Assembly: GCA_903923925.1 (NCBI GenBank)
Contig: CAIXZF010000070.1
Coordinates: 1 to 59,018 of the forward strand
Direction of reading: 5' to 3'
Source: an uncultured Bacteroidales bacterium
Lineage (GTDB): Bacteria > Bacteroidota > Bacteroidia > Bacteroidales > CAIXZF01
DNA: 59,018 nucleotides
Shown: piece by piece, positions 18,052 through 51,941 of the stretch
Numbering within the stretch: position 1 is the first letter of the stretch
How the letters are laid out: each line of letters opens with the position of its first letter
The notes under the pieces: model-generated
Databases searched by the model: none
Told to the model about the DNA's origin: nothing
What the model saw: only the letters and a program-made list of their open reading frames with translations
Program-made: the position numbers and the translations under genes

Positions 18052-18761
18052 TTTGATTTCCGGATTGCCCATCTTTTTAGAATATGCATCATCAATACAA
18101 GGCGGTAGCGAATCTGGTAATGGATTGGAAGATAGTTCTTTCTGAAGGTTGTAATAGTGTTATTTCCATGCCGTCTGTAATAAATTAAGGGTTTACGGAG
18201 GAGGAAATAATTGCCTCTTAGCGCTGCATTCAGCCCGATCCAGCTATCGTGCATGGCGATGTTCGAAGGGAAGGGAAGTACAATTTCCAGAATTTTCCGG
18301 TTGAAAGTCATGCAGCATCCCATAAACGAATTGTTTACCCAGTTTCTCAGGAAGCCTTTCCCCGAGAAGTTAACAGCAAAAAACGATTCATTTAGGATAT
18401 TGCCGCTGGCATCAGTAACAAAAGCATCACTTAAAACCAGGTTGTATTTTTCCATCAAAGGTGTGATAATAGCGACTTTATCTGATACCCATACATCATC
18501 CTGATCAGCAAGGTAGATGATATCTCCAATAGCTTGATTAAGTGCATTTTCAACATTGTGAACCAGTCCTGCTTTGTTTGGATTTTTTGATATTTTTATA
18601 CGATTATCATTGATTGCCAGTAGTTTAGCAAGGGTTTTATCGGTTGAATTATCGTCGGAAATAACAATTTCATCACCAGGATTTAACTGCATGAGGATGG
18701 AATTGATCTGTTCTTCAATATAAAGTTCGCCATTAAATGTGGGGATGCAGACGCTTATCAT
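18048..18761 (-). CDS. Glycosyltransferase family 2
   Basis: 'MISVCIPTFNGELYIEEQINSIL', 'VISDDNSTDKT', and a DxD-type 'YLADQDDVW'. Confidence 0.8.
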   Translation of the reverse strand: MISVCIPTFNGELYIEEQINSILMQLNPGDEIVISDDNSTDKTLAKLLAINDNRIKISKNPNKAGLVHNVENALNQAIGDIIYLADQDDVWVSDKVAIITPLMEKYNLVLSDAFVTDASGNILNESFFAVNFSGKGFLRNWVNNSFMGCCMTFNRKILEIVLPFPSNIAMHDSWIGLNAALRGNYFLLRKPLIYYRRHGNNTITTFRKNYLPIHYQIRYRLVLMMHILKRWAIRKSN

Positions 18762-18794
18762 TTTAACTATCGATCAGGATTTAAAGATAATGGA

Positions 18795-20354: not shown

Positions 20355-20395
20355 TATTTTGAGGATTTAATTTTAATCGGCTAAATTATAGAAAA

Positions 20396-21688: not shown

Positions 21689-21693
21689 GATAT

Positions 21694-22428
21694 TTAAAGG
21701 AGTTCGATCAAATTCCGTGAGGCTCTTTTCAGGAACAATATGCTACCAATGAGTGCAGGTATAAAAATGCAGATGAAAATGATGTGGTGATTCCAATGAG
21801 AGAAACTGTTTTCGACAAGTGCAAAGCGGGCATGTTCAAGAATGTAGGTCAGCGGATTTGCATAGAGGAAAGAGCGAACAGGGTATGGAATATTCGTAAT
21901 AGGATAAAGGATAGGCGATGCAAAAAAGAGAACCTGAAGCAGTACTTCCCAGATTTGATTTAAATCGCGGATCCGGACATAAAGTGGTGCTGCTATAAAT
22001 GAGAATACTACAGTAATTCCGTAAAGCAGCAGCGCATAGTAGAAAAAAATAAGGATGTAAAGTGGTGTTGGGAAGATATGATAATAGCCGCAAAGAAAAA
22101 TAAATAGTATTATAAGGTTAAAGCCAAAAGCTATTGCGCTGTGAATTGTTGAAGCAATGATGATAGTCCATTTTGGAATATTGATCTTTTTGAGGATATG
22201 TGCTTTATTCACGAAACTTGCCATTCCGTTTGTGGTTGAATCCTGAAAAAAGTTGTACAGAATTAAACCGATAAGTAAGTTAATCGAGTAGTTTTTCTGC
22301 TGGTTATGAAAAAGAGTTGAAAAAACAAAATTGATAATCAGAAAGTTGCTGAAAGGTTTGAGGAATACCCACACAATACCCAGAACCGAACCCTCATACC
22401 GCATTTTCAGATCTGTTTTAGCTAGCAT
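21694..22428 (-). CDS. wzm: ABC-2 type polysaccharide export permease (Wzm)
   Basis: Six hydrophobic helices. Start with 'MLAKTDLKMRYEGSVLGIVW'. The first ATG is at 22428; the ORF-track start at 22491 is a TTG. Confidence 0.8.
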   Translation of the reverse strand: MLAKTDLKMRYEGSVLGIVWVFLKPFSNFLIINFVFSTLFHNQQKNYSINLLIGLILYNFFQDSTTNGMASFVNKAHILKKINIPKWTIIIASTIHSAIAFGFNLIILFIFLCGYYHIFPTPLYILIFFYYALLLYGITVVFSFIAAPLYVRIRDLNQIWEVLLQVLFFASPILYPITNIPYPVRSFLYANPLTYILEHARFALVENSFSHWNHHIIFICIFIPALIGSILFLKRASRNLIELL

Positions 22429-22512
22429 CCAGATTGTTTCGCGGTTGTATTTTCGGTTTTGGGAACCTTCTATCTCATATGAAGCTTTCAAATTCGGCTT
22501 TGTAAAAGTGTT

Positions 22513-23028
22513 TCATTTAACTAATTCTTCAATTTTCATTTTCATTTTATCGAATTCTTCCCTGTTAAAAAGCCTTGTCAGATAAGCGATTTTCCCATTC
22601 TGATCAATGATAATATTTCGGGTTACACCTGCATCTTTTTCAGCATATAATTCGAAAATCTGCCCTTCGGGATCGAGTAAAATTGGGTACGAAATACCTG
22701 TGGCTGCTGCGATTCTTTTTATTTCTTTATCTCCTTCTTTTAAATCGATACCAAAAATTACAAAGTTGCCTTTATCCTTATGGAGTTGCCAGATTTCACT
22801 TTCAATAAAGGGCATTTCCTTGCGGCATACGCTGCACCAGCTGGCAGTAAACTGCAGCATAACTACTTTGCCAAGGTAATCGCTTAGCTTTTTTGTAGAG
22901 CCATCCGTAAAAGTTAATGTAAACCCTGGCGCAGTGTCGCCAATTTTTACAATATGCTTTGGGTCAGCCGCTTCCTGAGAAAAGAGGAATAAGGGGATAA
23001 ACAGAAATACGAATAAACTTAATTTCAT
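22513..23028 (-). CDS. TlpA/ResA-like periplasmic thiol-disulfide oxidoreductase
   Basis: Signal peptide 'MKLSLFVFLFIPLFLFSQ'. CxxC active site 'FTASWCSVCRKEMP'. Confidence 0.8.
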   Translation of the reverse strand: MKLSLFVFLFIPLFLFSQEAADPKHIVKIGDTAPGFTLTFTDGSTKKLSDYLGKVVMLQFTASWCSVCRKEMPFIESEIWQLHKDKGNFVIFGIDLKEGDKEIKRIAAATGISYPILLDPEGQIFELYAEKDAGVTRNIIIDQNGKIAYLTRLFNREEFDKMKMKIEELVK

Positions 23029-23056
23029 TTTGCAGAATGTTTAAGGCAAAGATAAA

Positions 23057-26000
23057 TTATTCAGGCATAGGTTTCCAAAACATGTGTTTTTGACCAAAAA
23101 CAGGAAGAATTGAAGCAAGTGTCCCACTTGCAAAAATAAGCAATCCAATTATCAATAATAGCACTGCAGGAAATTCAAAAGCAGGTGAAACAAATGATGG
23201 AATTATTGAAGTAAGTGCTGCCAGAACCCCAAATCCCAAACCAGCTGTCAGGATTAACATATTTTCAGTAATTAACATGAGACGGATGAAATTTTTCCGG
23301 AAACCAATTGCAAGATAAATTGACAGTTCTGCCTGCCTTTCCTGGGTGTTACGTAAGAGGAAGAACCCCAAACCGATAGTTCCGAGAATAACTCCTAATC
23401 CCCCAAGAAGCATAAATACGGATAAATAAGTGTTCTGAACTGAATTAAATTCTGCAAGCCGTTGTGAGGCTGCTGTGAGCACAAGACCCTGATCCTGAAA
23501 AAGGTACTGAAGTCGTTGAGAAATTGTATCGCGTCTGGAATAAGGACCCTGAACCAGAAAGATTGTTGAACTGCCATAGGATGGGTAATGTATTCTGAAC
23601 AGGCTATCCGATATCAGGATATTGCCCTGGAATATTGAATTATCAAGCCCGCCAATGAGTTTTAATTTTAAAATCCTGCCGGATTCGTCATGGTAGAGCA
23701 GAGTATCTCCGATTTTTTTACGCAATCCCCAGCTAATAACTGTCTGATCGGCAAAAGCCGGGATAAGGTCTGCAGATACTGCTGTTTTAAGAGCTCGCCA
23801 GGGATGTTTTCTGTCAACGGAATCATCAACTGCTGTAAACGTAAACATCCCTTCTTTGTCGAATAAATCAGAATTGATGCCCAAAACAGCGGGCTGTTTA
23901 ACCTGGTTCAGATTCAGGCAGCTGGCATCGCTGCCGGAAAGTTGTGGGATCTGAATGAAATGGACATCCTTAAATGCGGGTTCATCATTAATGGAGAACT
24001 TCTTTTTACCAAATGGAGTGTTGAGGTTATAGGCAACAGGGATAACGGTTTCACCCCAGAATAACACTCCTCCTGAACCTGATTTTGCATTATTTTCTGA
24101 ACCATAAAAGCTTCTGTGATTTGCACCTGTAATCATAATACTGAAAGTGCCCAAAGCCAGAAGTGTTATAATGCCCATTGTTCTTCCCGGATTAATTGAT
24201 GCATTCTTACGAACAAGAATCATGAAATCTGGAAAACCAGAGGGAGTAATATTTTGCAATTTTCTTAAAAAGTAATATGTCCCCGCCAGAAGTCCGGCCA
24301 GTAACAGCCCACCGGCAACCATAAACAACAAAGGATTGTCGGTTTTTGAAATGAACAAAAGGTAAATAAGCAGGAGTAATGAGCTAAGAATGAATGCTGA
24401 TGATAAAATTGCGAAAAGCAATCCTTTGCTGAGTCTGACAAGACTATAGTTCAGCGAATTCCTGAGCAGCACGCTAACTGAAAGCCTGAGATTTTTAACA
24501 AGAACAAACAGAATTACAATAATGGACAGAACAATGCCTGTAAATGACCCAGTTATCAGTGTTTGTAAGCTAATAAATGTTTCTAAAGTCGATGTTCTTA
24601 CAGCATCTTGCCAGATTGTGTTCAAACCCGCAATCAGGAGTTTGTTGTAGATAATTCCTGAGAATGCCCCGCAGATACCTGCAACTACGGAAACGATTAA
24701 TACTTCTGCAAGAAATAGTTTTATGATTTGTCTTTTACGAAACCCTAAGGAAGTAAGAATTCCTGCCTCCTTTAAACGCGATCTGGCATGAAGGCTGAAA
24801 AGCATCCCAATTAATATGAGTCCTGCCAGGATTAGGAAAAAACTGAGGCTGATAAAAAGTCCTCCAAAATCAGTGGAATTTTTTGCTGAGGCTAAACCTT
24901 CATCGTAAACTGGGGAGAATAATAGTTTGAAGGAAGCAGGTTTTAGCTTTTTCATCCATAGTTTTTCCAGAGAAGAAATTGAATTTCTTTTTTCGGAAAA
25001 CCTAATGGCTGTTAGCTTGCCAAAAGGATTTTTCCAGATTCTCTGCCCGGCTTTCAGCGAAATGAATGCTTTGGGTGTTCCCCGGAACATTCTCCAGTAA
25101 TCCTCATCTTTTTCCCTGATCTTTTTGAGGTTTATTGGAACCCCGGTTTCCCAGTCGCGACAGTTTCCGGCTTCGTTCACACCTGGAAATTTTGGCATAA
25201 GCCCCGGATCCCAAACAGGATTCTTGATTGGAAGTGTTGATTTCAAAAGGAAAACAGAAGTTTCCTCCTTTAATGTCCGCATTGGACCCATTATGTAATA
25301 TGTCAGCCATATGGAATCGCCGGCTTTTATTGCAAGATCAGCAGCAAGCCAGTCGTTGATCAGAATTTCATTTTCTTTCAGATTGGTATTTAGAAAACCA
25401 CTATCGGCAGCAACGATAAAGGAGTAAGGAGCCGAATTTGTTTTTGTGGAAATAGAGTTTGCCAGATAACCGAGAACTGCTGAAGGATTATCGATTGCCT
25501 GCACTAATGTTGCTGAAAGTGAACTGTCGAGAAATATACGTTCAGAAGTGATTTCAAGCGTATTATTGTTATTCAGTGGGGAGATTTTTATACCGGCATC
25601 CAGGGGTTTCCAGCAAAGCTTTAGGAGGCTGTCGAGCTTGCTTGCCGAAAATGAGCAGCTGCCGGAGTTTTCTGCAAGCAGAACATTTGCATTTCCATTC
25701 ATTTTGAGTTTTGCAGCCATTTGTTTCAGGCTGATAAAAACATTGAAAGGAGCGGCCTGGTTACTTTTCAGGCTGAACCTGCCAAAACTAATGTTAGTAG
25801 CGATGCTTTTTACCTTTAGTCGGATAGAAACAGAATTAAGAGTTTCAGAAACAAATGGTGCATTCTGAGGAATCTTGTCGGGTATTCTGATTTTAAGCAG
25901 AAACTCATCACCAGATTTTAACCCAAGCCTTAAGGCAGTATTCTCACTAATAACAGCTTCGTCAGCTTCTGGAATTTCGCAGTTTTCAGTAAAAAGATCC

Positions 26001-26347
26001 CTGAATTTATCGTTAATTCCATAAATTTTTATGTTGTTGATTACCTGGGTAGTGTTCGTGTTTATTGCGATTCCGTTCGATTGCAACACAGGAGCAACTG
26101 TTGCTTTGCATTTGCTGCTTATTTCTGAAGCAAGTGAATCTCTGAATAAGCGGTCGCCCGATTCTACAGCAAAGCGAATTTTCCCAAGCCGCTGATCTGT
26201 CAGTTTCTGCAGGCTGAACCTAACTGAATCACCGATAATAAGTGCACCCGTTAAAACAGCAATGCTAACAAGCATACCAGCTGCTATTGCCAGGTAAGGC
26301 TTTCGGAAATACCAGAGATTCCGGAAGATCAGTGAAGCCTTGTTCAT
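23057..26347 (-). CDS. ABC transporter permease with two FtsX domains, MacB/YbbP-like, 1096 aa
   Basis: N-terminal TM 'YLAIAAGMLVSIAVLTGALIIG'. Two 4-TM blocks, at residues ~500-700 and ~950-1090, are separated by large extracytoplasmic domains. Confidence 0.8.
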   Translation of the reverse strand: MNKASLIFRNLWYFRKPYLAIAAGMLVSIAVLTGALIIGDSVRFSLQKLTDQRLGKIRFAVESGDRLFRDSLASEISSKCKATVAPVLQSNGIAINTNTTQVINNIKIYGINDKFRDLFTENCEIPEADEAVISENTALRLGLKSGDEFLLKIRIPDKIPQNAPFVSETLNSVSIRLKVKSIATNISFGRFSLKSNQAAPFNVFISLKQMAAKLKMNGNANVLLAENSGSCSFSASKLDSLLKLCWKPLDAGIKISPLNNNNTLEITSERIFLDSSLSATLVQAIDNPSAVLGYLANSISTKTNSAPYSFIVAADSGFLNTNLKENEILINDWLAADLAIKAGDSIWLTYYIMGPMRTLKEETSVFLLKSTLPIKNPVWDPGLMPKFPGVNEAGNCRDWETGVPINLKKIREKDEDYWRMFRGTPKAFISLKAGQRIWKNPFGKLTAIRFSEKRNSISSLEKLWMKKLKPASFKLLFSPVYDEGLASAKNSTDFGGLFISLSFFLILAGLILIGMLFSLHARSRLKEAGILTSLGFRKRQIIKLFLAEVLIVSVVAGICGAFSGIIYNKLLIAGLNTIWQDAVRTSTLETFISLQTLITGSFTGIVLSIIVILFVLVKNLRLSVSVLLRNSLNYSLVRLSKGLLFAILSSAFILSSLLLLIYLLFISKTDNPLLFMVAGGLLLAGLLAGTYYFLRKLQNITPSGFPDFMILVRKNASINPGRTMGIITLLALGTFSIMITGANHRSFYGSENNAKSGSGGVLFWGETVIPVAYNLNTPFGKKKFSINDEPAFKDVHFIQIPQLSGSDASCLNLNQVKQPAVLGINSDLFDKEGMFTFTAVDDSVDRKHPWRALKTAVSADLIPAFADQTVISWGLRKKIGDTLLYHDESGRILKLKLIGGLDNSIFQGNILISDSLFRIHYPSYGSSTIFLVQGPYSRRDTISQRLQYLFQDQGLVLTAASQRLAEFNSVQNTYLSVFMLLGGLGVILGTIGLGFFLLRNTQERQAELSIYLAIGFRKNFIRLMLITENMLILTAGLGFGVLAALTSIIPSFVSPAFEFPAVLLLIIGLLIFASGTLASILPVFGQKHMFWKPMPE

Positions 26348-27072
26348 AGTGTTTGCATCAGTGAGAGTTTCCCGGAACTAAGCCTGTAGAATTGATTTGT
26401 TTGCTTTGCCAGTTCAAGCGAATGCGTTACAATCAGCAATGCCATTTGATGCTCCCGGCTTAATTCTACCAGAAGCTTTCCCACAATACCGGCATTTTCA
26501 GCATCAAGTGAACCTGTAGGTTCGTCGGCTAAGAGCAAACGGGGTTTGTTAATTAACGCACGAACTACTGCTGTTCGCTGGCATTCCCCGACAGAAAGCT
26601 GATAAGGCCGTTTTTGCGAATGCTCCTTTAGCCCGACTCTTTCTATTAAATACAATGCACGATCGATGGTTTCTTTATGGTTGGATCTGTTTTTTCCCGG
26701 TAAAGTTGGCAGCAAAACATTTTCCAGAAGGTTAAGCTGCGGAATAAGATAATGTTGCTGGAATACATGTCCGATAAAGCGGTTTCGCAACGATGCCAGT
26801 TCTTTTTCATTAAGTGTATCTGTTGCTGTACCGTTTAAAAATACTATCCCGGAACTTGCCTTTTCCAGTGTCCCGATAATATTAAGCAGTGTGCTTTTTC
26901 CTGAGCCTGATGGACCAACAATTGCGATGGAGTCATTCCCGCAAATCTGAAAATTTATAGAATCAAGAACATGGTTTCGGATTGCAGTTCCGGGCTGCTC
27001 AAAATATTTGGAAATAGTTTTGAATTCTGCCAGTGCTGTAGATACCGTATCAGGGATTGGAATATGATACAT
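26344..27072 (-). CDS. ABC transporter ATP-binding protein, MacB/LolD-like
   Basis: 'GPSGSGKSTLLNIIG', 'LSVGECQRTAVVRAL', 'LLLADEPTGSLD'. ATGA overlap with the permease gene. Confidence 0.9.
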   Translation of the reverse strand: MYHIPIPDTVSTALAEFKTISKYFEQPGTAIRNHVLDSINFQICGNDSIAIVGPSGSGKSTLLNIIGTLEKASSGIVFLNGTATDTLNEKELASLRNRFIGHVFQQHYLIPQLNLLENVLLPTLPGKNRSNHKETIDRALYLIERVGLKEHSQKRPYQLSVGECQRTAVVRALINKPRLLLADEPTGSLDAENAGIVGKLLVELSREHQMALLIVTHSLELAKQTNQFYRLSSGKLSLMQTL

Positions 27073-27087
27073 AAGACTATTTCATTT

Positions 27088-28380
27088 TCAGTTCAAGGTT
27101 ACACTTTTGTATACTTGCAGCATCTTTTCTGTAAGCTTAGTACAATCAAATTTTTCTTCGATAGCTTTTCGCCCTGCAATACTCATTTTAATAAGCAAAT
27201 CCTTATCTGAAATGACTTCTTTGAGCTTAGTTGCCAGCGCTTCTGCTGTATTCGGGTGGTAGATTACTCCTCCGCCCGATGATTGTATAATTTCCGGGAA
27301 AGCTCCAAGATTTGGCTGAACCAGCGGAATGCCTGCCGCCATAGCTTCCAGCTGGTAGAGTCCGAATGCTTCCCCTTTTAAAACCGGCACCGAAAGCACT
27401 GTTATATTTTTAAGAAATGCTTTAATACCATCAGCTGTGAAATCATCAAAAAACACAACATCTTTAACACTATTTGCAGTCCTGAGTTTAGATAACTGTT
27501 TGTTAATAAAAGCTTTATCGTCATTTGTTCTGCCACCTGTAACATGAAGTCTGAGTGATTTAAACTCCTTAAAAGATTTCAGTCTGATGAAGGCATCTAC
27601 AAGGACTCCAAAACCGTTTTCTTCACAAATTCTTGAGAGAAATCCAATAGCAGGCGAGCTTGTATTTGGTTGATTATATTCATATTGGCCCGGCAATATT
27701 CCAATAGGAATTCGATGAATTTTTTCATCGGGAATTGAGAGTTTCGTTTTCATCAGGTCTGCGAAGAAGTCACTTACTGCTACGAAGGCATCCACATCGC
27801 GGGCCTTTTCAGCAAGCAATTTCCATATTTTATCCTGGTAATTCTGGTGCATTGCATCAATCCAGACATCCTCATCCTGAAGTGAACAAACTACCGGAAT
27901 TCCCACCTCCTTTTTTATCAAAGCAGCCATCCCCAGAAGCAGGGCATTGGAAAAGTGAACTACATCAGGTTTCTCGTGGTATTTGAGATAATCAACCAGC
28001 TGCCGAAGTTCTGTTGCCTGGTTCCCATCAATACCAAGCAGCATAGATTCTGTCATGGCTTCCAGTCCTTCGGCTCGCGTTGAGCCGGCTTTACTTGCAG
28101 CATATTTAAGAATCCATTTTGCATTAAACATATGTTCCATCCATCCGGGCATATTTCGAAGCCATGGAAATTGCTGTTTCAGATAAATATTCACAGCACC
28201 ATAAAATACAGGTATTTCCGACTGCTCGAGGTTTCCATTCATAGTAAGCGGAAGGTAAACCGGCAGCGTTATTGCATCGTGCCCCGCTTGCCGCAATGAT
28301 CGCACATAGGCACTGTCGCGCAAACAGTTACCGCAATAAAATGTGCCTCCAAATCCTGGTACTATGTTGATAATTTTCAT
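27088..28380 (-). CDS. Glycosyltransferase family 4 (GT-B, group 1)
   Basis: EX7E region 'EAFGLYQLEAMAAGIPLV'; 'FIRLKS...LHVTGG'. Confidence 0.8.
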   Translation of the reverse strand: MKIINIVPGFGGTFYCGNCLRDSAYVRSLRQAGHDAITLPVYLPLTMNGNLEQSEIPVFYGAVNIYLKQQFPWLRNMPGWMEHMFNAKWILKYAASKAGSTRAEGLEAMTESMLLGIDGNQATELRQLVDYLKYHEKPDVVHFSNALLLGMAALIKKEVGIPVVCSLQDEDVWIDAMHQNYQDKIWKLLAEKARDVDAFVAVSDFFADLMKTKLSIPDEKIHRIPIGILPGQYEYNQPNTSSPAIGFLSRICEENGFGVLVDAFIRLKSFKEFKSLRLHVTGGRTNDDKAFINKQLSKLRTANSVKDVVFFDDFTADGIKAFLKNITVLSVPVLKGEAFGLYQLEAMAAGIPLVQPNLGAFPEIIQSSGGGVIYHPNTAEALATKLKEVISDKDLLIKMSIAGRKAIEEKFDCTKLTEKMLQVYKSVTLN

Positions 28381-28446: not shown

Positions 28447-31050
28447 CTAATGACCGAAGGCATAAACTTTTCCATCCTGAGCCCCGACCACAATAAATTC
28501 AGAAATAACCGCTGCTGTGCTTCCCGAAGGACTCCCGATGTCGAAGTTCCAGCACTCTTTGCCTGTGGAAATATTTAAAACAAGAAGTCTGCCCTCACCA
28601 GATACAATAATTACATAATTTCCTGCGATAACTGGCGATGCGTCGACCTTCCCCAGTACTTTTGTTTTCCAGAGTACTTTTCCTTTCAATGCATTAAAAC
28701 AATAAACATAATGATTCTGAGTGCCGGTGATAACTCTGCTTTCATCAATTGCAGGAGATGCAAGAAAGGACCCGCTGACTTCTGTTTGCCATAAAACTTT
28801 CTTTTGCCGGGTATTGATACAATAGAAAATACCATCATAATTGCCAAAAAAGGCTTTGTCTCCCTTAGTTGTAGGTGAGGCAGGAATGTAAGTTCCAATG
28901 TCGTTATTGCCAGTTTCCTTTCCTGTATCTGTATTTACATAGCGCAACATTCCGTCGCAACCACCGAAAACTGCATTTCTTCCGCTTATTGCAGGCGAAC
29001 CGTTTATGAAATTCTCTGTTGCGAATTTCCAGATTACTTTTCCGGAAGAAGCATCCAGGCAATACAGGTTAAAATCATAACTTCCCACAAGAATCCTTTT
29101 CTGAATCTTATCCGGACCGTATGTCCAGTTGCAGGCACCGGAAATCTGACCATCTGTTTTGTATTTCCATTTCAATTTGCCGCTATTTGCATCAAAAGCA
29201 AACAGAATACCCCCGAGTGATCCTATAAAAACGGTATTGTCAAGAATTAGGGGAGGAGCTTCTATCGCGGTTTTAGTATTGTATTTCCATTTTAACTGCC
29301 CTGCTGTTGTAAGTGCGTACAGATTTCCGTCGTTCGAGCCAATATAGATAATATCATTAAAAATTACTGCTGAAGATTTGATGGCATCTCCTGTTTTAAA
29401 TGTCCAGAGGAGTTTGAATGGCGGCGAAACAGGAGCAGCTGTGTTTCCGCTGAGTTGATTATCGCCCCTGAACGAGGGCCAGCAATTTGAGGCTTTCTGT
29501 TGGGCGAGTAATGGAATACTGAACAGAAATACGATCAGAAATGCAATTTTAAATGATAAAGCAGCTGTGGGACAGGCCTTTACGCATGCTTCTGCTTTAC
29601 TAGTGAGTGCTTTTTTAATAGATTCATTAAATGGAACACCAATTTCTACATCAAATCCCCGGCCTATATAAGTGAGTCCCGCGCTTTCTCTGTCTTCTCC
29701 GGCAATTTCAACACAAAGTCCGCAACGGATGCATTTTTGGGGTTCATATACTACAAGGTCATGCTGATAGGATTTAGTAAGAAGTTTTCTTTCAGAAGCT
29801 GCAAAATGATTCCTGTCTGCCTTATATTCATCTGAATAATTCCGAAGTTTGCAATTGCCGGCTTTGCGGCAGTCGCAATGTAGGCATCGTTTTGCTTCCT
29901 GAATTGCCTCCTTGCTGTTAAAGCCATTCAGAAATCCTTTTTCCGGTTCGAACCTATTGTCATCGGTACTTTCTTTCAGATATTCAAGCAGTTCAGATTG
30001 TGTAATTTTATTGATTCTTGAGTTGAATTTAATTCCGTGAGTTTCTGAAGTTCCGCTTAAGTAGGAGCTGGCTTTCATTGCTGCTGATTTACCTTGTGCC
30101 GCTGAACGGATGGCCATTTTTTGTTCACGGATGAAACTTCCGCAGGTGAAAACATTCTGAGGAAAAACTTCACCAAAAACACGTTTCGACTCCTCATCTT
30201 TAATTCCTGCTGCGAGAATAACAGCATCAAAATTCTCCTGAAAATCATTCCAGTTTTCTTTCGTTACCGAGTGGTTCATAATAAACTGGCCTCCCATTCT
30301 TCTGATAACATCTATATCAGCATCCAGCATAGTTCCTGGAAGAATTTCATCAGGAATTTCATACCGTAATGTTCCGCCTGGCTGTGAATTTTTATCGAAA
30401 AGGATGCAGGTATGTCCCGATTTGAGAAGGTAAAAAGCAGCTGAAAGTCCAGCGGGACCAGTGCCGATTACAGCGACCTTTTTCCCCGATTTTTCTGTTA
30501 AAGGAAGTTGAGGGATACTGCGATTGGAACCCACGGCAGTAAACCTTTTGAGCAAACAGATTGAGACAGCTCCGTCCAGACTTTTACGATGACAGGCTTT
30601 TTCGCAGGGTGCTGCACAAATATATCCCATTACAAGGGGTAAGGCAATTTCTTCCAGAACAACTTCAAGTGCTGTCTGAATATTTCCAACTGCAATCAAA
30701 CGATTCATGAGAGGGATATTCATAAAAGCAGGGCATGATAAACGGCAGGGAGCTTCACAATCGCCAACATGATCGCTTAAAAGAAGCTCAAGCGCTTCTT
30801 TTCGCGCAGCAAGAACATCAGGTGAATTCGTAATAAGCTGCATTCCCGACCCACATGGCATGGCACAGGAGGGGAACAGATTTCCTGTTCTCTGATCCTT
30901 AACCAGGCATACCATACAGGATGGATGGCAGGAATGATCCTTTAAATAACACATCGATGGAATCTGAATGCCAATAGAAGCAGCTGCCTGCATAACAGAT
31001 GTACCATCTTCAACTTCAATTTCCGTATTATTTACCGTTAATTTTATCAT
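28447..31050 (-). CDS. In-frame fusion of three parts. N-terminus: NuoG-type 2Fe-2S domain plus GltD/NfnB-like FAD/NAD(P)H Fe-S oxidoreductase plus 2x[4Fe-4S] ferredoxin. Middle: hydrophobic signal-peptide-like segment. C-terminus: PQQ-like 8-bladed beta-propeller.
   Basis: 'MIKLTVNNTEIEVEDGTSVMQAAASIGIQIPSMCYLKDHSCHPSCMVCLV' matches a NuoG/HydA N-terminal 2Fe-2S domain. Rossmann motif 'VAVIGTGPAGLSAAFYL' with 'DKNSQPGGTLRYEIP' matches GltD. Ferredoxin 'CIRCGLCVEIA...CVKACPTAAL'. Then 'KIAFLIVFLFSIPLLAQQKASNCWPSFRGDN' is followed by PQQ-type repeats ('...DGNLYALTTAGQLKWKY', 'LFAFDANSGKLKWKY', 'LYCLDASSGKVIWKF', 'VYCFNALKGKVLWKT'). The junction is at about nt 29495-29548. Confidence 0.7.
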   Translation of the reverse strand: MIKLTVNNTEIEVEDGTSVMQAAASIGIQIPSMCYLKDHSCHPSCMVCLVKDQRTGNLFPSCAMPCGSGMQLITNSPDVLAARKEALELLLSDHVGDCEAPCRLSCPAFMNIPLMNRLIAVGNIQTALEVVLEEIALPLVMGYICAAPCEKACHRKSLDGAVSICLLKRFTAVGSNRSIPQLPLTEKSGKKVAVIGTGPAGLSAAFYLLKSGHTCILFDKNSQPGGTLRYEIPDEILPGTMLDADIDVIRRMGGQFIMNHSVTKENWNDFQENFDAVILAAGIKDEESKRVFGEVFPQNVFTCGSFIREQKMAIRSAAQGKSAAMKASSYLSGTSETHGIKFNSRINKITQSELLEYLKESTDDNRFEPEKGFLNGFNSKEAIQEAKRCLHCDCRKAGNCKLRNYSDEYKADRNHFAASERKLLTKSYQHDLVVYEPQKCIRCGLCVEIAGEDRESAGLTYIGRGFDVEIGVPFNESIKKALTSKAEACVKACPTAALSFKIAFLIVFLFSIPLLAQQKASNCWPSFRGDNQLSGNTAAPVSPPFKLLWTFKTGDAIKSSAVIFNDIIYIGSNDGNLYALTTAGQLKWKYNTKTAIEAPPLILDNTVFIGSLGGILFAFDANSGKLKWKYKTDGQISGACNWTYGPDKIQKRILVGSYDFNLYCLDASSGKVIWKFATENFINGSPAISGRNAVFGGCDGMLRYVNTDTGKETGNNDIGTYIPASPTTKGDKAFFGNYDGIFYCINTRQKKVLWQTEVSGSFLASPAIDESRVITGTQNHYVYCFNALKGKVLWKTKVLGKVDASPVIAGNYVIIVSGEGRLLVLNISTGKECWNFDIGSPSGSTAAVISEFIVVGAQDGKVYAFGH

Positions 31051-33420
31051 TTATTGAATAATTACGGAATTTACAGGACAAATCTGCCGGCATATATCAC
31101 ACTTTATACATTTCTCGTGATCAATGTTATGCAGTTCATAAGGTTTAAATTCGATGGCATCAGCAGGGCATTGCTGAGCACATTTAGTACATCCGATACA
31201 ATCGTTTGTTATACAATAGGTTATTAATGGAAGGCATTTCCCGGCAGGGCAGATTCCTTTCAGATGAGCTTCATATTCCTCGCGGAAATAATGTAAAGTC
31301 GAAAGGATAGGGTTAGGAGCAGTTTTTCCCAGGCCGCAGAGGCTGCCGCTTTTAGTACTTCTGGCTAGCTTTTCCAGCCTGATAAGGTCAATTTCATCTG
31401 CTTTGCCTTTCCGGATATTTTCTAATATTTCAAGCATTCTCCTTGTACCTATTCTGCAAAAGGTACACCTTCCACACGATTGATTTTGAGTGAATGAAAG
31501 GAAATAATGTGCAATATCAACCATGCAATCTGTCTCATCAAGAACGATAAGTCCACCTGAACCCATCATAGAGCCAGCTGCTGCAAGTTCTTCAAAATCA
31601 ATGGCTAATTCTGCCTTAGATGCAGGAATACAGCCTCCAGAAGGGCCTCCGATTTGAACTGCTTTAAACTTCAATCCACCAGGAATACCTCCTCCGATTT
31701 CTTCCACAATCTGCCGGATCGTAATCCCCATAGGAACCTCAATAAGCCCCCCTCGCTTCACTTTACCGGCAAGGGCGAAAACCTTCGTTCCCTTACTGTT
31801 TGCTGTGCCATTAGCAGCAAATGCATCGGCCCCATGTTGCAGTATCCACGGAATCATGGAGAATGTTTCTGTATTGTTAATTAATGTGGGATGCTTGTGA
31901 AGCCCGCTAACAGCAGGATAAGGCGGTCGAAGCCTGGGGATTCCGCGTTTTCCTTCCACCGAAGCAATTAGTGCAGTTTCTTCGCCGCAAACAAAGGCAC
32001 CTGCACCTTCGAAAATTTCTATATCAAATGAAAACGTACTACCAAAAACAGATTGCCCGAGAATACCTTCTTTTTTACAGATAGCAAGTGCTTCGGCAAT
32101 CCGTTTAACAGCCAGAGGGTACTCAGCCCTGATGTAGAAAAGACCTTTGGTAGCAGACGTAGCGTAGGCAGCAATCAGCATCCCTTCTATTATCCGGAAT
32201 GGATACGACTCCAGCAGCATCCGGTCCATGAATGCACCAGGATCGCCTTCGTCACCGTTACAGATCAGGTATTTTTCTGCACTAATCTGATCTTTAACAA
32301 GTTGCCATTTTGTCCCAGTCGGGAAACCAGCGCCTCCTCTTCCTCTCAGACCACTATTCTTTATAATTTCAATGATCTGCTGTGATGATAACGAAGAAAG
32401 ACAATGTTCCAGAGCCTTGAAGCCTCCAGAATTTTTGTACTCCGTGAGATCGCAGGGTTTTAAAACTCCTCTGTTTTCGGTCGCTATTGCTAATTGAGGC
32501 CCTAAAAATTCTGATAGCGGTGTATCACGTTGTTCCCAGTTGTATTTCCGGAACGATTGCTGTTTTCCTTCCTCAATTACTCTTTCGAAAAGTCCTAAGA
32601 AATTGGATTTAAGTCTGTTAACAAGTCCTGAAGGTTGAAAATGCTTCAAAACAACAGCTCTCACCTCATCGGGTCTTATTTTTGCATAAAAGGCAGTTGG
32701 CTCTCCGGGTTTTACGATCTCCAGCACTGGCACCTGGTTACAGATTCCAACGCAGCCCACTTGTTTCACAATTACATCAAGCTTTGTCTGTTTTATTGTT
32801 CTGTCGAGTTCATTTTTTACTTCCATGCTGCCGCTCGCCGCACAACAAGAACCGAGACCGATACGAATTTCGCCTTTCCCATGCTGAATCTCAGACAACA
32901 TCTGAGTTTCAGATCTCATCTCAAGAGGTTGAGAGGTAGTTGACCTCAGTTGAAAATCAATCAAAACTTCACCAACTGTCTGAGCTGAAACATGCCCATA
33001 GGTTACTTCATCAATTTTTACAACAGGTGCCAGTGTGCAACACCCAAGGCAGGCAACCTTTTCAATGGTAAATTCCCCTGCAGTATCTGTATCCGAATCT
33101 TCTTCCAACTTTAATTCACGGCGGAATGCATCAAGAACAGTTAGTGCGCCTTTCACATGGCAGGCCGTTCCTGTGCATACTTTTATAATATGTTTTCCAG
33201 CTTTTTTGTGCCGGAATTGTGAATAGAATGTTGATATTCCAGTAATTGATGAAGCTGTGATTTCTGTGATCTCACAAACTCTCTGCAAAGCTTCCTCGGG
33301 CAGGTAGTTGAATTTCTGTTGAATTTCCTGAAGAATAGGGATAACAGCCTCGGGAGAAGTAGTATGCCGGGCTACAATTCTGTCGACAATTGACGAGATG
33401 TTTTCTTCCTTTTTCTCCAT
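31051..33420 (-). CDS. Fused NuoE-like (2Fe-2S) and NuoF-like (FMN, NADH, 4Fe-4S) protein with C-terminal 2x[4Fe-4S] ferredoxin. HydC-HydB/StnB-StnC-like NADH-binding flavoprotein.
   Basis: NuoE motifs 'CTGTACHVKGA' and 'CLGCCTLAPV'. NuoF motifs 'LRGRGGAGFPTGTKW', 'GEETALIASVEG' and 'QSCGRCTFCRIGT'. C-terminal 'CIGCTKCAQQCP' and 'CIKCDICRQICP'. The first ATG is at 33420 and forms a TAATG overlap with the stop of the upstream gene; the ORF-track start at 33435 is a TTG. Confidence 0.85.
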   Translation of the reverse strand: MEKKEENISSIVDRIVARHTTSPEAVIPILQEIQQKFNYLPEEALQRVCEITEITASSITGISTFYSQFRHKKAGKHIIKVCTGTACHVKGALTVLDAFRRELKLEEDSDTDTAGEFTIEKVACLGCCTLAPVVKIDEVTYGHVSAQTVGEVLIDFQLRSTTSQPLEMRSETQMLSEIQHGKGEIRIGLGSCCAASGSMEVKNELDRTIKQTKLDVIVKQVGCVGICNQVPVLEIVKPGEPTAFYAKIRPDEVRAVVLKHFQPSGLVNRLKSNFLGLFERVIEEGKQQSFRKYNWEQRDTPLSEFLGPQLAIATENRGVLKPCDLTEYKNSGGFKALEHCLSSLSSQQIIEIIKNSGLRGRGGAGFPTGTKWQLVKDQISAEKYLICNGDEGDPGAFMDRMLLESYPFRIIEGMLIAAYATSATKGLFYIRAEYPLAVKRIAEALAICKKEGILGQSVFGSTFSFDIEIFEGAGAFVCGEETALIASVEGKRGIPRLRPPYPAVSGLHKHPTLINNTETFSMIPWILQHGADAFAANGTANSKGTKVFALAGKVKRGGLIEVPMGITIRQIVEEIGGGIPGGLKFKAVQIGGPSGGCIPASKAELAIDFEELAAAGSMMGSGGLIVLDETDCMVDIAHYFLSFTQNQSCGRCTFCRIGTRRMLEILENIRKGKADEIDLIRLEKLARSTKSGSLCGLGKTAPNPILSTLHYFREEYEAHLKGICPAGKCLPLITYCITNDCIGCTKCAQQCPADAIEFKPYELHNIDHEKCIKCDICRQICPVNSVIIQ

Positions 33421-35210
33421 TATTTCGAGATGCAATAAATGTTTTTATTTCCCCTCAGAAAGATCATTCCATCGGCAAAAGCTGGTGTGCAGAAGGAACC
33501 TTCTCCAAGCTGTGGCTCAGCAATTGAAGTAAAGATTTTGTCGGCCTTGAAAATATGCATAATGCCTTTGCTGTCAAGCAGATAGATTTTTCCTTCAACA
33601 AGCACAGGCGACGAATAAACCTTATTGCCAAACTCTTTTTCCCATAATTTCTTGCCGGTTTTCGCTTCATAACATGCAACAGTGCCATAACTGGTTGTAA
33701 GGAAGAGGTAATTTTCTGTAGCAACAGGGCTTGGCACATCCGATAAATACTCGGTATCTTCCCAAAGAATTTTTGGTGTATCGCCAATCTGTATCGCTGA
33801 AAGTTTCGAATATTCGTTCACTGCATATACAATGCCATCAGCGTATGCCAGAGAAGGCCCGACTTCTCCCGATATACAGTCGATTTTCCACAGTTCTTTT
33901 CCGGTAACTGCATCATAAGAGGCCACACTAGGATCGGCGGCCAGAATAATCTCCACTCTACTGCCAGTATTTACAACAATGGGTGAAGCCCAGGAAATCC
34001 GCACCTTGCGTGGGGTATTCCAAATAACGTCTCCTGTTTTCCCGGCAAGTGCTGTAATGCTGGCGCTGCCACTCTGATCGTATTGAACGATGAGTTTATC
34101 CTGAAACATCATCAATGATGAGGAGTGCCCGTAATGATTTTTAGGCAGGCCAAGGTTTTTACTCCAAACCTTTTCACCTTCCATATTGAGTGCAATCAAA
34201 TCACCATTTGCAAAAATGGCATAAACTCTTCTGCCATCGGTAGTTAGTGTGGGAGCAGAGAAACCGGTTTCAATATTAACTTTTGGTGCTTGTCCGGGGC
34301 TGCCGGGAATTTTATCCACAGTGGTTTTCCAGACAAGCTTTCCGGAATTCACATCCAGGCAATATACTTCCCGGGTTTTTTCGTTAGCCCCTGACAGGAA
34401 AAGTTTATCTTTCCAAACAATCGGGGAATTATATCCCTGCAAAGGAATATTCGTCTTCCATTTGATATTTTTACCGCTCTTCCCATCCCAATTTACAGGG
34501 ATATTTTTCTGCCATGCAATGCCATTTCCACCCGGACCCCGGAAAGAAGTGAAATTAGAGCGAATTTCCTGAATTCCGGGAAAACCGTCGACAGAGGAAG
34601 AAGATGCAACAGTGTTTGAATCTGGAGAATCATTGGTATTGCCATCTAATTCTTGCGCACTGTTCTTCTCAATTCCATTAAAACGTTCTGAAGAATCTGC
34701 CGATTTTGAGTTCATTAACAAGGCAATGTCAATTTCCCTTCCCAATTCATTATGCGAAAGCCAGGCAAAAATGAAGGCCGTTACAAATAGAAATATTCCC
34801 GCTCCCGCTATCCAGTTTCTGCTTATTTTACGAAGTTCGAATATGTTAAACTTCTTAGAATCAGGAACTTCAGGAAGTTTATGTCTGAAATATTCAATGA
34901 TCTGCAGACAGATAATTATTACAAGGATGCTGCAAAACAAAAGTAAGCCACCCGTTTTTACCTGCCATTGATTGGTGAAGAAAGCGCGACGGGCCAGCAG
35001 ATCCAGTTCACGTATTTGGTCTCTAAGCTGCTGATTTTCAGGATTTGCCTGCAACTGATCAACCATCGAATTTAAGGCTTTCGTGTTCAGTGGATCAGCA
35101 CGTTGAAGCTGCAAGTAGTTAACAATAATCAATACGCAAAGCAGCACAGCAAGCACAGCGCTTATGATGGCGATGTTTTGCAAAAGGCGGATGTTTGGTT
35201 TGATTATCAA
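33420..35210 (-). CDS. Membrane-anchored PQQ-like beta-propeller protein. Three N-terminal TM segments, a low-complexity linker, then the propeller. TTG start.
   Basis: TM 'NIAIISAVLAVLLCVLIIVNYL', 'GGLLLFCSILVIIICLQII', 'AGAGIFLFVTAFIFAWL'. Repeats 'VYCLDVNSGKLVWKT', 'LIALNMEGEKVWSKN', 'ITALAGKTGDVIWNT', 'VASYDAVTGKELWKI', 'VACYEAKTGKKLWEK'. N-terminal propeller motif 'FTSFRGPGGNG'. Confidence 0.7.
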   Translation of the reverse strand: MIIKPNIRLLQNIAIISAVLAVLLCVLIIVNYLQLQRADPLNTKALNSMVDQLQANPENQQLRDQIRELDLLARRAFFTNQWQVKTGGLLLFCSILVIIICLQIIEYFRHKLPEVPDSKKFNIFELRKISRNWIAGAGIFLFVTAFIFAWLSHNELGREIDIALLMNSKSADSSERFNGIEKNSAQELDGNTNDSPDSNTVASSSSVDGFPGIQEIRSNFTSFRGPGGNGIAWQKNIPVNWDGKSGKNIKWKTNIPLQGYNSPIVWKDKLFLSGANEKTREVYCLDVNSGKLVWKTTVDKIPGSPGQAPKVNIETGFSAPTLTTDGRRVYAIFANGDLIALNMEGEKVWSKNLGLPKNHYGHSSSLMMFQDKLIVQYDQSGSASITALAGKTGDVIWNTPRKVRISWASPIVVNTGSRVEIILAADPSVASYDAVTGKELWKIDCISGEVGPSLAYADGIVYAVNEYSKLSAIQIGDTPKILWEDTEYLSDVPSPVATENYLFLTTSYGTVACYEAKTGKKLWEKEFGNKVYSSPVLVEGKIYLLDSKGIMHIFKADKIFTSIAEPQLGEGSFCTPAFADGMIFLRGNKNIYCISK

Positions 35211-35443: not shown

Positions 35444-36706
35444 TTATACTTTAACCGGACAATACTCAATGCATCTGTTACAACTTAAGCATGTTCCTTT
35501 ATTTGGAACGTAATCTGGATTGTAATTTGTAATAAGCCGGCCAGCGATCAGAAGGCCAAAGGTTAATCCCATGAAACCACCCAGTAACCAGCCACCGATA
35601 TAGAATTTGCGCAGGATTTCATTTGTTTCTTCAAGTAGTTGTTTAGCAGGCTTTCCGGAGGATTTGAAAGCTTTTATCTCATAGGATTCAGGTTTTTCCT
35701 GCATTTTTACCGGATCCATTACAGCTTTGGCGAGCCTCACACGAGGATTAACTTCTGCCAATGTTGTGTGTAACTTTGAACCGGTGTAACCGCCAGCTGC
35801 AATTAAAACAGGAATTAGAATGCATATCAGTATGAATTTTTTAAGTAACTCTTGTTTTGTTTCCGGATTTTTTACAGTGATGGGGATATTGATGGCATCA
35901 TAGGGACAAGTATTTTCACAAAGCTTACATTGAATGCAATTAGCAGGAGTGATGGTCATATGCTTTTTTGAAAACCGGCTGAACCAGTTCAGGATAACAC
36001 CATACGGACAAAGAAAACGACAATAGGGTCTTGCAATAAAAACGCCGCTGCCTAGCAGAATACCTGCAAACACAAACATCCCGAATGAGGCATTAAGCCT
36101 GAATATTCCAACAAAGGGATCGTATCTGCAGATGATGAAATCGGTGCCAGTTGCAGCATAGAGTACGGCCAAACCAAGGTATAAATAGGGCAAGAGTCCA
36201 AGAACGGAATTGAGTCGTGAGCCCATTTTTTGAGGTTGTATTGCTACCAGGTCCTGCATTGCCCCGAATGGACAAACACCTGCACAAAAGGTTCGACCAT
36301 AAAATAAGGTAAATACCAGCGGAATTACAAAAAATGCCAATGCAGTGAAGGGCAAAGTGTAAGCTGAATAGAAAAGTCCAAGGCTTACATTCTGAATAGC
36401 TCCGATTGAACATACACAACCTTCGCGGTAAAAACCAAAATATGCCAGGCTGAAAATTGAAATCCAGAAAACGCCTTTGCGGCTGCGTTTTTTAAGTATT
36501 AACCAGCTAATCAGAGATAAAGTGCTTAACAAAACCAATACATCCAGGTAGGCGAGGAGTTCATAACGCGGGCCGGGTTGCAAAGTTTCAGGTTGGGTAT
36601 AAGCTGATTCAAATTCAGGTTTTGGAAAGCGTTGTTTGGCAAAACTTTCCATCGACTGAAACAAAGTAAGCAGGAACAACAGAAATAAAATGGCCTTCTT
36701 TCTCAT
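35444..36706 (-). CDS. NapH/MauN/CcoG-like polytopic membrane iron-sulfur protein
   Basis: Signal peptide 'MRKKAILFLLFLLTLFQSMESFA'. Cytoplasmic-loop CX3CP motifs 'FCAGVCPFGAMQDL' and 'YCRFLCPYGVILNW'. C-terminal ferredoxin motifs 'CIQCKLCENTCPYDAI' and 'CLSCNRCIEYCPVKV'. Confidence 0.8.
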   Translation of the reverse strand: MRKKAILFLLFLLTLFQSMESFAKQRFPKPEFESAYTQPETLQPGPRYELLAYLDVLVLLSTLSLISWLILKKRSRKGVFWISIFSLAYFGFYREGCVCSIGAIQNVSLGLFYSAYTLPFTALAFFVIPLVFTLFYGRTFCAGVCPFGAMQDLVAIQPQKMGSRLNSVLGLLPYLYLGLAVLYAATGTDFIICRYDPFVGIFRLNASFGMFVFAGILLGSGVFIARPYCRFLCPYGVILNWFSRFSKKHMTITPANCIQCKLCENTCPYDAINIPITVKNPETKQELLKKFILICILIPVLIAAGGYTGSKLHTTLAEVNPRVRLAKAVMDPVKMQEKPESYEIKAFKSSGKPAKQLLEETNEILRKFYIGGWLLGGFMGLTFGLLIAGRLITNYNPDYVPNKGTCLSCNRCIEYCPVKV

Positions 36707-37368
36707 CCTTCCTGCTGAGTTTTATCGTTTGCCAGTCTTTCTGTACCAAAACCGTTTAGCAAATAAGGTTTGTTTGCCGGCACCCGGCTGAAGGCTTCCG
36801 AGGGACAAACCCTTGCGATAGAGCATTCGTTGCAGTTTACGCAGCGGTTGTGCCGGATTTGCAGCTGCAAGGAGCCGTTGCCAAAGGCATCACAACCCTT
36901 CACACATTTGGCGCAGCCAATGCATAAGAGTTCATCAACAGTATATTCATAAAAGGGATCCTCTATGAACTTTCTTTTTAAGGCATTTGTCGGGCACAGC
37001 TGGTTTTCGGCAGCTGTTGTAAGGGTTTTTGTTTCAGGTTTGAAATAACCACCACAAAGGTCGCAGTAGCCGCACATCACATATGCATGTGTGCACTTTA
37101 CTGCCGAAGGCGTTATTACACAAGCAGTTGCACATCGTCCGCATTGAATACATTTTGATGGGTCGAGCTGCCATACTGTACTCCTGAGGCTTACGGCTTC
37201 AGCTTGATTGCAGCTGTCGGATAAGCTGCAACTCCCGCAGGCAAAATTAAACTTGCAATTCTCATCATCCCTGCGTGGGCGCAGCATGAGAGTTCCTCCC
37301 AGAACTACAAGCCCGGTTAATAATCCTCCTCGTACGCATTTCGCAATAAATTCCCTTCTGCTAGGCAT
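36703..37368 (-). CDS. Tat-exported NapG/MauM-like poly-ferredoxin with about four [4Fe-4S] motifs
   Basis: Twin-arginine signal 'MPSRREFIAKCVRGGLLTGLVVLGGTLML'. The ATG is at 37368; the ORF-track start at 37410 is a TTG. Cys clusters 'CIQCGRCATAC', 'CGYCDLCGG', 'CIGCAKCVKGC', 'CVNCNECSIARVCP'. ATGA overlap with the NapH-like gene. Confidence 0.8.
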   Translation of the reverse strand: MPSRREFIAKCVRGGLLTGLVVLGGTLMLRPRRDDENCKFNFACGSCSLSDSCNQAEAVSLRSTVWQLDPSKCIQCGRCATACVITPSAVKCTHAYVMCGYCDLCGGYFKPETKTLTTAAENQLCPTNALKRKFIEDPFYEYTVDELLCIGCAKCVKGCDAFGNGSLQLQIRHNRCVNCNECSIARVCPSEAFSRVPANKPYLLNGFGTERLANDKTQQEG

Positions 37369-37375
37369 ACGATTT

Positions 37376-38365: not shown

Positions 38366-38366
38366 G

Positions 38367-41049: not shown

Positions 41050-41053
41050 GGTA

Positions 41054-51885: not shown

Positions 51886-51941
51886 CTGGTAACAACTAAG
51901 TGTGGTTTGTGCTATTGGGAGTAAGGGCAATGTTAACAATA

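Follow-up and report, generated by a model that had tools for sequence, protein, structure and literature searches.

Can a cofactor-laden cytoplasmic flavoprotein and a secreted β-propeller share a single polypeptide chain, and if so, on which side of the membrane does each half reside? This question is raised by a 59,018-nucleotide contig of an uncultured Bacteroidales bacterium (CAIXZF010000070.1; "the window" hereafter denotes this whole stretch), in which one open reading frame (ORF) joins an iron–sulphur (Fe–S) flavoprotein to a propeller through a segment resembling a signal peptide. It is rare for a cofactor-loaded cytoplasmic enzyme subunit to be fused to a secreted protein, and such a fusion is workable only if the topology signal survives in mid-protein. 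A preliminary description of the DNA had left the choice between a genuine fusion and two genes merged by an error or a pseudogenising event. We show here that the merged ORF is a genuine in-frame fusion that is real, reproducible, undecayed and recurrent, and we consider it probable that its internal helix exports the propeller and tethers the flavoprotein to the inner face of the membrane, with topology, docking and tethering predicted from the protein itself and from its relatives.

The fused ORF occupies positions 28447–31050 on the minus strand, the strand of all features described below unless stated otherwise, and encodes 867 amino acids plus a stop codon, with its ATG at 31050 and its stop at 28447–28449. 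The preliminary description reported the frame correctly, as free of a stop or canonical start at the join, and did not state its strand. An Fe–S flavoprotein module (residues 1–498) is followed by a signal-peptide-like helix (residues 499–516) and a propeller (residues 524–867), and the junction reads ...KAEACVKACPTAAL-SFKIAFLIVFLFSIPLLAQQKASNCWPSFRGDN..., with S499 beginning at nucleotide 29556 and W524 at nucleotide 29481. As quoted earlier, the ferredoxin motif CVKACPTAAL runs straight into SFKIAFLIVFLFSIPLLAQQKASNCWPSFRGDN. No stop codon interrupts the frame at the junction and the remaining two frames are closed, while residues 462–512 include no in-frame ATG, GTG or TTG, the candidates there being restricted to ATT, ATC, ATA and CTG codons. 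The 369 codons after the junction share 59–63% identity with stand-alone orthologous propellers, so the open frame in this region is not due to chance. A tryptic peptide spanning the junction of the fusion protein would be IAFLIVFLFSIPLLAQQK.

Gene calls giving the exact 867-residue protein occur on at least 20 contigs, which derive from several samples and from three kinds of assembler, comprising Logan, a MEGAHIT-style k141 assembly and scaffold assemblies from several SAMEA samples. All five readable contigs, each from an independent sample, are nucleotide-identical across the junction, and four of the five show no differences over the whole gene. The suspected assembly or sequencing artefact, in whose favour the rarity of the fused arrangement is the sole point, is refuted by these contigs and deserves practically no credence, as a merger requires the loss of a stop, a spacer, a start and an n-region, for which a homopolymer or single-base slip is insufficient. 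A 100% identical protein of 761 residues (P0001) was rejected as a shortened variant of the fusion because its tail is a chimeric contig end; in its contig (L091, ENA ERZ18648440 scaffold_45490) unrelated GC-rich sequence follows gene position 2183, at nucleotides ~2500–2626. This false protein serves as a 90% cluster representative in the protein database.

Separate, adjoining genes for the two halves are the usual state, present in about 135 of 137 classified related loci, where the propeller comes with a signal peptide of its own. Among species-representative loci 71 are split and two fused (73 classifiable of 80), and a scan of metagenomes with the junction segment gave 64 classifiable loci, all of them split. 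The flavoprotein of a split locus ends a few residues past a CPTGA(L/M/I) motif and is followed by a stop codon, a spacer of 16–66 nucleotides and the gene for a propeller of 371–379 residues that has its own methionine and signal peptide and is 59–63% identical to the C-terminal half of the window protein. Orthologues with a stop and a start at the junction had been expected to betray two separate genes; the pattern is indeed the prevailing one, but it shows the origin of the fusion and not an error. In this scenario, an in-frame deletion would have removed the final few codons and stop of the flavoprotein gene, together with the short spacer and, from the propeller gene, the start codon and the charged n-region of its signal peptide. 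Every stand-alone orthologue of the propeller is extracytoplasmic by signal peptide, which in Bacteroidota ends in a small residue followed by Gln. In loci labelled Eubacteriales (L026), Aminicenantes (L029) and KSB1 (L038) the signal is of the lipobox type (LLLCTC, FLTCSG and VIACST, respectively), suggesting that the propeller is lipid-tethered outside Bacteroidota. A search with the C-terminal half alone returned stand-alone propellers of 268–440 residues with generic names, and neither new fusions nor a functional name.

Fused genes are not confined to the window. Protein searches and an exhaustive HMMER census identified eight other fused proteins, seven (P0002–P0008) sharing 40–53% identity with the window protein and one (P0377), the one additional propeller fusion found by the census, sharing 33%. 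All eight consist of the flavoprotein, a variable linker, a hydrophobic segment and a propeller opening with W-x-x-(F/Y)RG(D/N), and those with retrievable context lie in the same syntenic cluster as the window gene. We inferred a neighbour-joining tree from the concatenated halves of 68 sequences, with P0377 left out, in which the fused genes were monophyletic in none of 200 bootstrap replicates, and in 199 of these parsimony required four to five changes of state. P0002 grouped with a split gene in 195 of the 200 replicates and with the window gene in none, and the junction sequences are unrelated between fused clades. Within this one conserved cluster, fusion thus arose on at least four to five independent occasions, and P0377, given its low identity and different junction, would represent a separate origin outside the tree. 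Three clades contain pairs of fused proteins at 66, 67 and 72% identity whose ORF is still open, which indicates that the architecture is functional and maintained in those lineages. This recurrence in the same cluster, the retention to 66–72% identity and the undecayed state of both halves support the earlier suggestion of a genuine fusion.

P0377 (L092/L093, 9001–11202) differs in several respects from the other fused proteins. A low-complexity stretch replaces its FAD (flavin adenine dinucleotide) domain, its junction has no linker, and its internal signal ends in a lipobox-like FSSC; at its locus the GT4 glycosyltransferase gene is relocated and an extra propeller gene follows the FtsX gene. 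Two further long proteins, P0257 (1133 residues) and P0314 (951 residues), were rejected as propeller fusions, as they have unrelated C-terminal add-ons on the same N-terminal module. In one of the two proteins the add-on is a further complete GltD-like unit with ferredoxin domains, and in the other it is an unassigned domain of ~430 residues. The C-terminus of the flavoprotein is evidently a hot spot for the attachment of modules.

Could the propeller nevertheless be made on its own? Between the Fe–S domain and the propeller lie 25 residues in the window protein and 34–103 in P0002–P0008, and P0377 is as compact as the window protein. An ancestral methionine is still in frame before the helix in P0002, P0004 and P0007, and P0377 has one at the helix start. 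The window fusion, which also has no linker, is the sole examined case without any in-frame methionine in or before the helix. Given this lack of a canonical internal start, the propeller should be made only as part of the fusion protein. Translation of the propeller also, or only, from ATT502, CTG505 or ATC506, with the fusion protein as a by-product, would draw on the near-cognate codons at residues 502–512 and their AT-rich context, and dual expression is conceivable in the three relatives that keep the ancestral methionine. However, ATG, GTG and TTG are absent from residues 462–512 of the window protein, a start at ATT or CTG would yield a signal peptide without an n-region, and initiation at these codons is very rare in bacteria. 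We therefore regard a separately initiated propeller as highly improbable.

A more serious objection is that the window fusion may be a recent in-frame deletion, neutral or mildly deleterious, within one clonal population, either tolerated or near loss and functionally uninformative. Several observations weigh in this direction and against our interpretation. All assemblies compared are nucleotide-identical, such that polymorphism is not visible in them, and the window junction is known from these identical contigs alone. Its particular zero-linker junction recurs in no diverged relative; no relative above ~62–70% identity was found in any collection searched, the metagenome scan included, and consequently the age and retention of this particular junction cannot be bracketed. 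The fused state is rare (2 of 73 and 0 of 64 loci), and the short spacers and overlapping frames between the two genes ease accidental fusion. Furthermore, the distance of the C-terminal half to the reference clade is the longest of the compared set (1.05 vs 0.86–1.00), albeit by a small excess, while that of the N-terminal half is the shortest. Against an uninformative deletion stands the conservation of the gene itself. At columns conserved in at least 95% of split orthologues, the window gene keeps 88 of 91 positions in the N-terminal half and 50 of 52 in the C-terminal half (138 of 143 overall), with conservative replacements at the highly conserved columns that differ, and by these measures neither half bears signs of decay. 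The fusion also has at least four independent counterparts, three of which have been kept over long divergence, and hence the architecture is compatible with function. Finally, in a propeller that has no alternative start, a non-functional fusion would amount to the loss of a gene conserved in every related cluster. On balance, we consider the neutral deletion unlikely.

What, then, are the two halves? The cytoplasmic half begins with a [2Fe-2S] domain of the HydA/NuoG N-terminal type (residues 1–76, positions 30823–31050; Fer2_4, PF13510, E = 8e-12), which aligns with residues 4–101 of StnC. This is followed by a two-[4Fe-4S] domain of the GltD/DPD type (residues 98–172, positions 30535–30759; Fer4_20, PF14691, E = 3e-11) and by an FAD-binding Rossmann module at residues ~186–335 (positions 30046–30495), which has a GTGPAG motif at residues 196–201 and matches NAD_binding_8, DAO and Pyr_redox_2 at residues 190–231; these two parts align with StnC 102–324. 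The module closes with a Cys-rich segment, CLHCDCRKAGNCKL, and a NuoG-like [4Fe-4S] ferredoxin domain ending in CVKACPTAAL (residues 385–498, positions 29557–29898), a region of low AF2 (AlphaFold2) confidence that aligns with StnC 566–670 and matches Fer4/Fer4_Nqo3 in Pfam at residues 432–498. The best matches of the whole module are StnC (8oh5_C, E = 1.5e-83), 9bov_A and NfnA of NfnABC, in agreement with Foldseek.

The phmmer alignment covers StnC 4–324 and 465–670 and skips ~325–464, a second Rossmann region of ~140 residues where the window protein has ~15. In the published domain map of StnC, the NADPH-binding Rossmann fold spans ~325–464 and an FdhF-like C-terminal domain spans 683–1172 (PMC10482914), which indicates that both are absent from the module studied here. 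By sequence comparison, the cytoplasmic half is a StnC/NfnABC-like subunit, of the BfuA type in the Bfu family, that has no NADPH-binding domain. It has the HydA/NuoG-type [2Fe-2S] domain, the GltD-type two-[4Fe-4S] domain with FAD Rossmann fold and the adjoining NuoE/NuoF-like module expected of BfuA, and differs in having no second, NADPH-binding Rossmann fold, the substrate site of Stn and Nfn. The earlier label of a GltD-like oxidoreductase is thus apt for the two-cluster and FAD domains and does not extend to a complete GltD. The latter assignment was rejected, with scores of 334.8 bits against a cut-off of 916 for NF009454 and 115.8 against 447.7 for TIGR01317, and with the NADPH domain missing. 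The whole Bacteroidales family, including the stand-alone P0009–P0120, is without the NADPH-binding Rossmann fold of StnC and GltD while keeping the FAD part.

Immediately upstream, at 31051–33435, lies the gene for a NuoE–NuoF fusion of 794 residues (BfuC–BfuB or StnA–StnB type), the TAA stop of which is immediately followed by the ATG of the flavoprotein–propeller gene. Pfam assigns to this partner two 2Fe-2S_thioredx stretches followed by Complex1_51K, NADH_4Fe-4S and Fer4_21, and it matches the structure chains of NfnB (9n5u_B, E = 2.4e-199) and StnB (8oh5_B, E = 2e-190). Its extra [2Fe-2S] and C-terminal 2x[4Fe-4S] sites represent a cluster set typical of bifurcating HydB/HydC modules, and the first nucleotides of its gene are shared with the end of the preceding propeller gene (33420–33435). 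The locus therefore resembles StnABC and NfnABC (PDB 8oh5, 9bov, 9n5u) both in the [2Fe-2S], GltD-type two-cluster, FAD and NuoG-like [4Fe-4S] parts of the flavoprotein and in a partner corresponding to a fused StnA/StnB (HydC/HydB) module, including the extra [2Fe-2S] and the C-terminal 2x[4Fe-4S]. However, StnC continues into its C-terminal domain where the window protein continues into a helix and propeller, and StnC has both an NADPH-binding Rossmann and an FdhF-like domain, whereas the window protein has neither. Moreover, Stn and Nfn are soluble, in contrast to a protein with a predicted membrane helix and periplasmic propeller. A survey of the Bfu family makes no mention of propeller, PQQ (pyrroloquinoline quinone) or transmembrane variants (PMC9304861).

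The C-terminal half (residues 524–867, positions 28450–29481) opens with WPSFRGD and is an eight-bladed PQQ-like or BamB-like β-propeller, matching PF13570 at 199.6 bits, PF13360 (PQQ_2) and Beta-prop_ACSF4, with the Pfam propeller region at about residues 520–867. In the AlphaFold2 (AF2) model, its eight blades have a predicted local distance difference test score (pLDDT) of 95–98, and the N-terminal module is also modelled confidently. Structural matches by Foldseek include BamB (E ~1e-23), YxaL and tetrathionate hydrolase at 16–21% identity, which share the eight-bladed fold without PQQ (target TM-score ~0.65–0.85). These proteins are likewise extracytoplasmic, and the orthologue of the window propeller is, as in BamB, a lipoprotein in some other phyla. 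A BamB function was rejected, with 144.1 against 285.2 bits for TIGR03300 and 123.8 against 423 for NF008351; the gene context is a redox cluster and not the β-barrel assembly machinery, and the window fusion protein contains no lipobox, a feature of the BamB lipoprotein. A PQQ-dependent dehydrogenase was similarly rejected (TIGR03075, 75.9 against a cut-off of 480.05). All fused homologues contain an FGGCDG motif with an invariant Cys (C698), and many orthologues have a Cys before the first Trp (C523); these residues might be redox-active or metal-binding in an otherwise cofactor-free-looking propeller.

The two halves are joined by the former signal-peptide h-region (residues 499–516, SFKIAFLIVFLFSIPLLA, positions 29503–29556), which we propose acts as an internal export signal and membrane helix. 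Residues 497–515 form the most hydrophobic 19-residue stretch of the whole protein (Kyte–Doolittle 2.34), and the segment aligns with the signal peptides of split orthologues. Its 15 hydrophobic residues, IAFLIVFLFSIPLLA, match the median length in a set of 58 stand-alone orthologous signal peptides (interquartile range 13–17) and fall within the length of about 7–17 usual for substrates of the Sec pathway and signal peptidase I. An h-region plus an AQQ-type site had been described before, and can indeed be read in the sequence, where a candidate signal peptidase I site, A516|Q517-Q518 (positions 29497–29505), follows the hydrophobic residues with Pro at −4, Ala at −1 and Gln at +1 (L-L-A|Q-Q). 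Gln at +1 is a hallmark of signal peptidase I substrates in Bacteroidetes, known as the Q-rule (PMC5837995). What differs from an ordinary signal peptide is the position, which is not N-terminal, with no methionine or basic n-region beyond the single remaining K501.

We propose that residues 1–498 would fold in the cytoplasm and dock onto the NuoE–NuoF-like partner encoded immediately upstream. Segment 499–516, once out of the ribosome, would then engage Sec as an internal start-transfer signal in N-in/C-out orientation, and the eight-bladed propeller would be threaded through Sec into the periplasm. The outcome would be a cytoplasmic redox module fastened to the inner membrane on its cytoplasmic side, with a propeller supplied in a 1:1 ratio at the corresponding point of the outer face. 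This orientation is favoured because Lys and Arg residues are biased to the upstream side of the helix (~18 upstream vs 5 downstream in a manual count of the flanks of the nine fused proteins), because the orthologues are extracytoplasmic and because the cluster contains membrane-anchored paralogues, two of its propellers being natively anchored by Kyte–Doolittle analysis. In the window protein itself the charge bias is weak, with K491 and K501 upstream and K519 downstream.

Other features of the segment count against a stable tether. It has 15 strictly hydrophobic residues, where a bilayer span takes ~19 or more and the fused lineages have 15–22; the last Fe–S ligand, C493, lies eight residues before the helix, leaving no flexible tether, and the long-retained fusions have 34–103 residues between Fe–S domain and propeller. 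In addition, AF2 models no clean helix, with a pLDDT below 50 for residues 424–519, and the model is for this reason uninformative on the helix and on relative domain placement.

The alternative that fares best is that the link is transient and that signal peptidase I cuts A516|Q517 after export. Cleavage would set the propeller free in the periplasm, probably with pyroglutamate at its N-terminus, and leave a flavoprotein keeping residues 499–516 as a C-terminal membrane tail; it disputes only the permanence of the link. The window segment is indistinguishable from an ordinary Bacteroidota signal peptide in its 15 residues and in its Pro, Ala and Gln at −4, −1 and +1, and small-residue/Gln sites persist in seven of nine fused proteins, including clades at 66–72% identity. 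Near the helix end, Gln is present in seven of nine fused and 40 of 58 split forms. Its conservation could, however, simply reflect the first residue of the mature fold. Three older fused lineages, moreover, have segments of 20–22 residues, nearer to stable anchors. The median hydrophobic segment is 20 residues in fused and 15 in split forms, a difference that is uncorrected for phylogeny (Mann–Whitney p = 0.004) and that stems from only about five independent lineages with variable lengths within fused clades (15/20, 16/22), so that longer segments in fused forms are suggestive only as a pointer to anchors.

A comparable case is the cytochrome b–c1 precursor FbcH of Bradyrhizobium japonicum, which is cut at an internal signal peptide. 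There too, two redox proteins that act within the membrane or on its opposite sides arise from one ORF and an internal signal-peptide-like segment exports the C-terminal part. The N-terminal partner of FbcH is polytopic and its cleavage has been experimentally shown, whereas that of the window protein is a soluble-type, cofactor-rich flavoprotein. Taken together, we give cleavage only slightly less than an even chance. Whether A516|Q517 is cut or left intact, the flavoprotein with its NuoEF-like partner is most likely membrane-attached, and the window fusion offers a naturally occurring test of whether a signal peptide of Bacteroidota, once internal, is cut or acts as an anchor.

The surrounding gene order places the fusion in a conserved cluster with at least 576 matching stretches in species-representative genomes. 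In the direction of transcription, the cluster consists of two to three PQQ_2 propellers, an NHL protein, a ferredoxin with a Tat (twin-arginine translocation) signal, a NapH/NosR-like Fer4_5 protein and a transmembrane propeller of ~600 residues, followed by the ~790-residue NuoE–NuoF fusion, the Fe–S flavoprotein, its propeller, a GT4 glycosyltransferase, an ABC ATPase and a large FtsX permease. In the window, the genes for an NHL-repeat protein and three PQQ_2 propellers, one with an N-terminal membrane anchor and two with Q-rule signal peptides, span 37376–42268. Two of these paralogues supplied the N-termini quoted in the preliminary description, MLKKITLLCLLFFVGNLVFSQEIAQWRGINRDG (41054–42268) and MKAIVRVILVLVLTASGYYSYSQAFAQWRGIERKG (39799–41049); the sequences are real, but because the operon is on the minus strand their genes lie upstream of the fusion gene and not downstream. 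They are followed by the ferredoxin with a Tat-type signal, SRREFI (36703–37410; translation and Pfam), a NapH/NosR-like membrane polyferredoxin (35444–36706; Fer4_5, with an NCBIfam NapH/MauN match below cut-off) and a propeller paralogue with three N-terminal transmembrane helices (33420–35210; PQQ_2 and Kyte–Doolittle), which is conserved in position in every related locus examined. For none of the proteins of the cluster does an NCBIfam model attain its cut-off, and literature searches found no published description of the cluster or of a membrane-anchored BfuA.

The Fer4_5 polytopic protein and the Tat ferredoxin are the same two parts that pass electrons to periplasmic enzymes in NapGH, NosGH and NosR systems. 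However, those of the cluster score below the family cut-offs and are accompanied by neither nitrate reductase nor nitrous-oxide reductase, and their periplasmic partners are instead cofactor-less-looking propellers and an NHL protein. We tentatively suggest, with more reservation than conviction, that the recurrent fusions mark an undescribed membrane-attached member of the Bfu family, in which a NuoEF-like NADH/ferredoxin module sits on a BfuA-like subunit without an NADPH site, as part of a new trans-membrane redox system. The repeated fusion of the same neighbours and its retention constitute a Rosetta-stone argument for a Stn/Nfn-like complex positioned at the membrane and stoichiometric with a propeller on the opposite side. 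If this is true, a Bfu-type complex at the inner face would be fixed 1:1 to a periplasmic eight-bladed propeller and, together with the NapH/NapG-like pair, four further propellers, the NHL protein and a TlpA-like redoxin, would form a trans-membrane redox system that is widespread among anaerobic members of Bacteroidales and Marinilabiliales and has relatives in loci with the labels KSB1 and Aminicenantes. What appears to be new is the joining of a BfuA-like subunit to a periplasmic propeller by way of a signal peptide that has been kept, a clue to a physical link within a widespread cluster, and the fusion offers the first testable architectural constraint for this large, unnamed set of genes.

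Downstream of the fusion gene, at 22513–28380, are the syntenic genes for the GT4 glycosyltransferase, the ABC ATPase, a 1096-residue FtsX-type permease and a TlpA/ResA-like redoxin (Pfam, NCBIfam). The last, a secreted thiol-disulfide oxidoreductase (22513–23028), follows the permease and occupies the same position in the P0009 locus, which hints at periplasmic thiol chemistry in the system. Directly beyond it, at 18048–22491, lie genes for a Wzt/ABC-2 polysaccharide exporter, an RgpF-like rhamnan synthesis protein and a GT2 glycosyltransferase; these genes and the conserved GT4 gene suggest that the cluster may be linked to cell-envelope glycans. The window also contains three giant ORFs of 1643–2437 residues, at 67–7380 (plus strand), 46756–51939 and 51979–56910, with PKD, immunoglobulin (Ig) or CARDB repeats. 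They carry type IX secretion C-terminal sorting domains (Por_Secre_tail, CHU_C), which confirms the Bacteroidota origin of the DNA.

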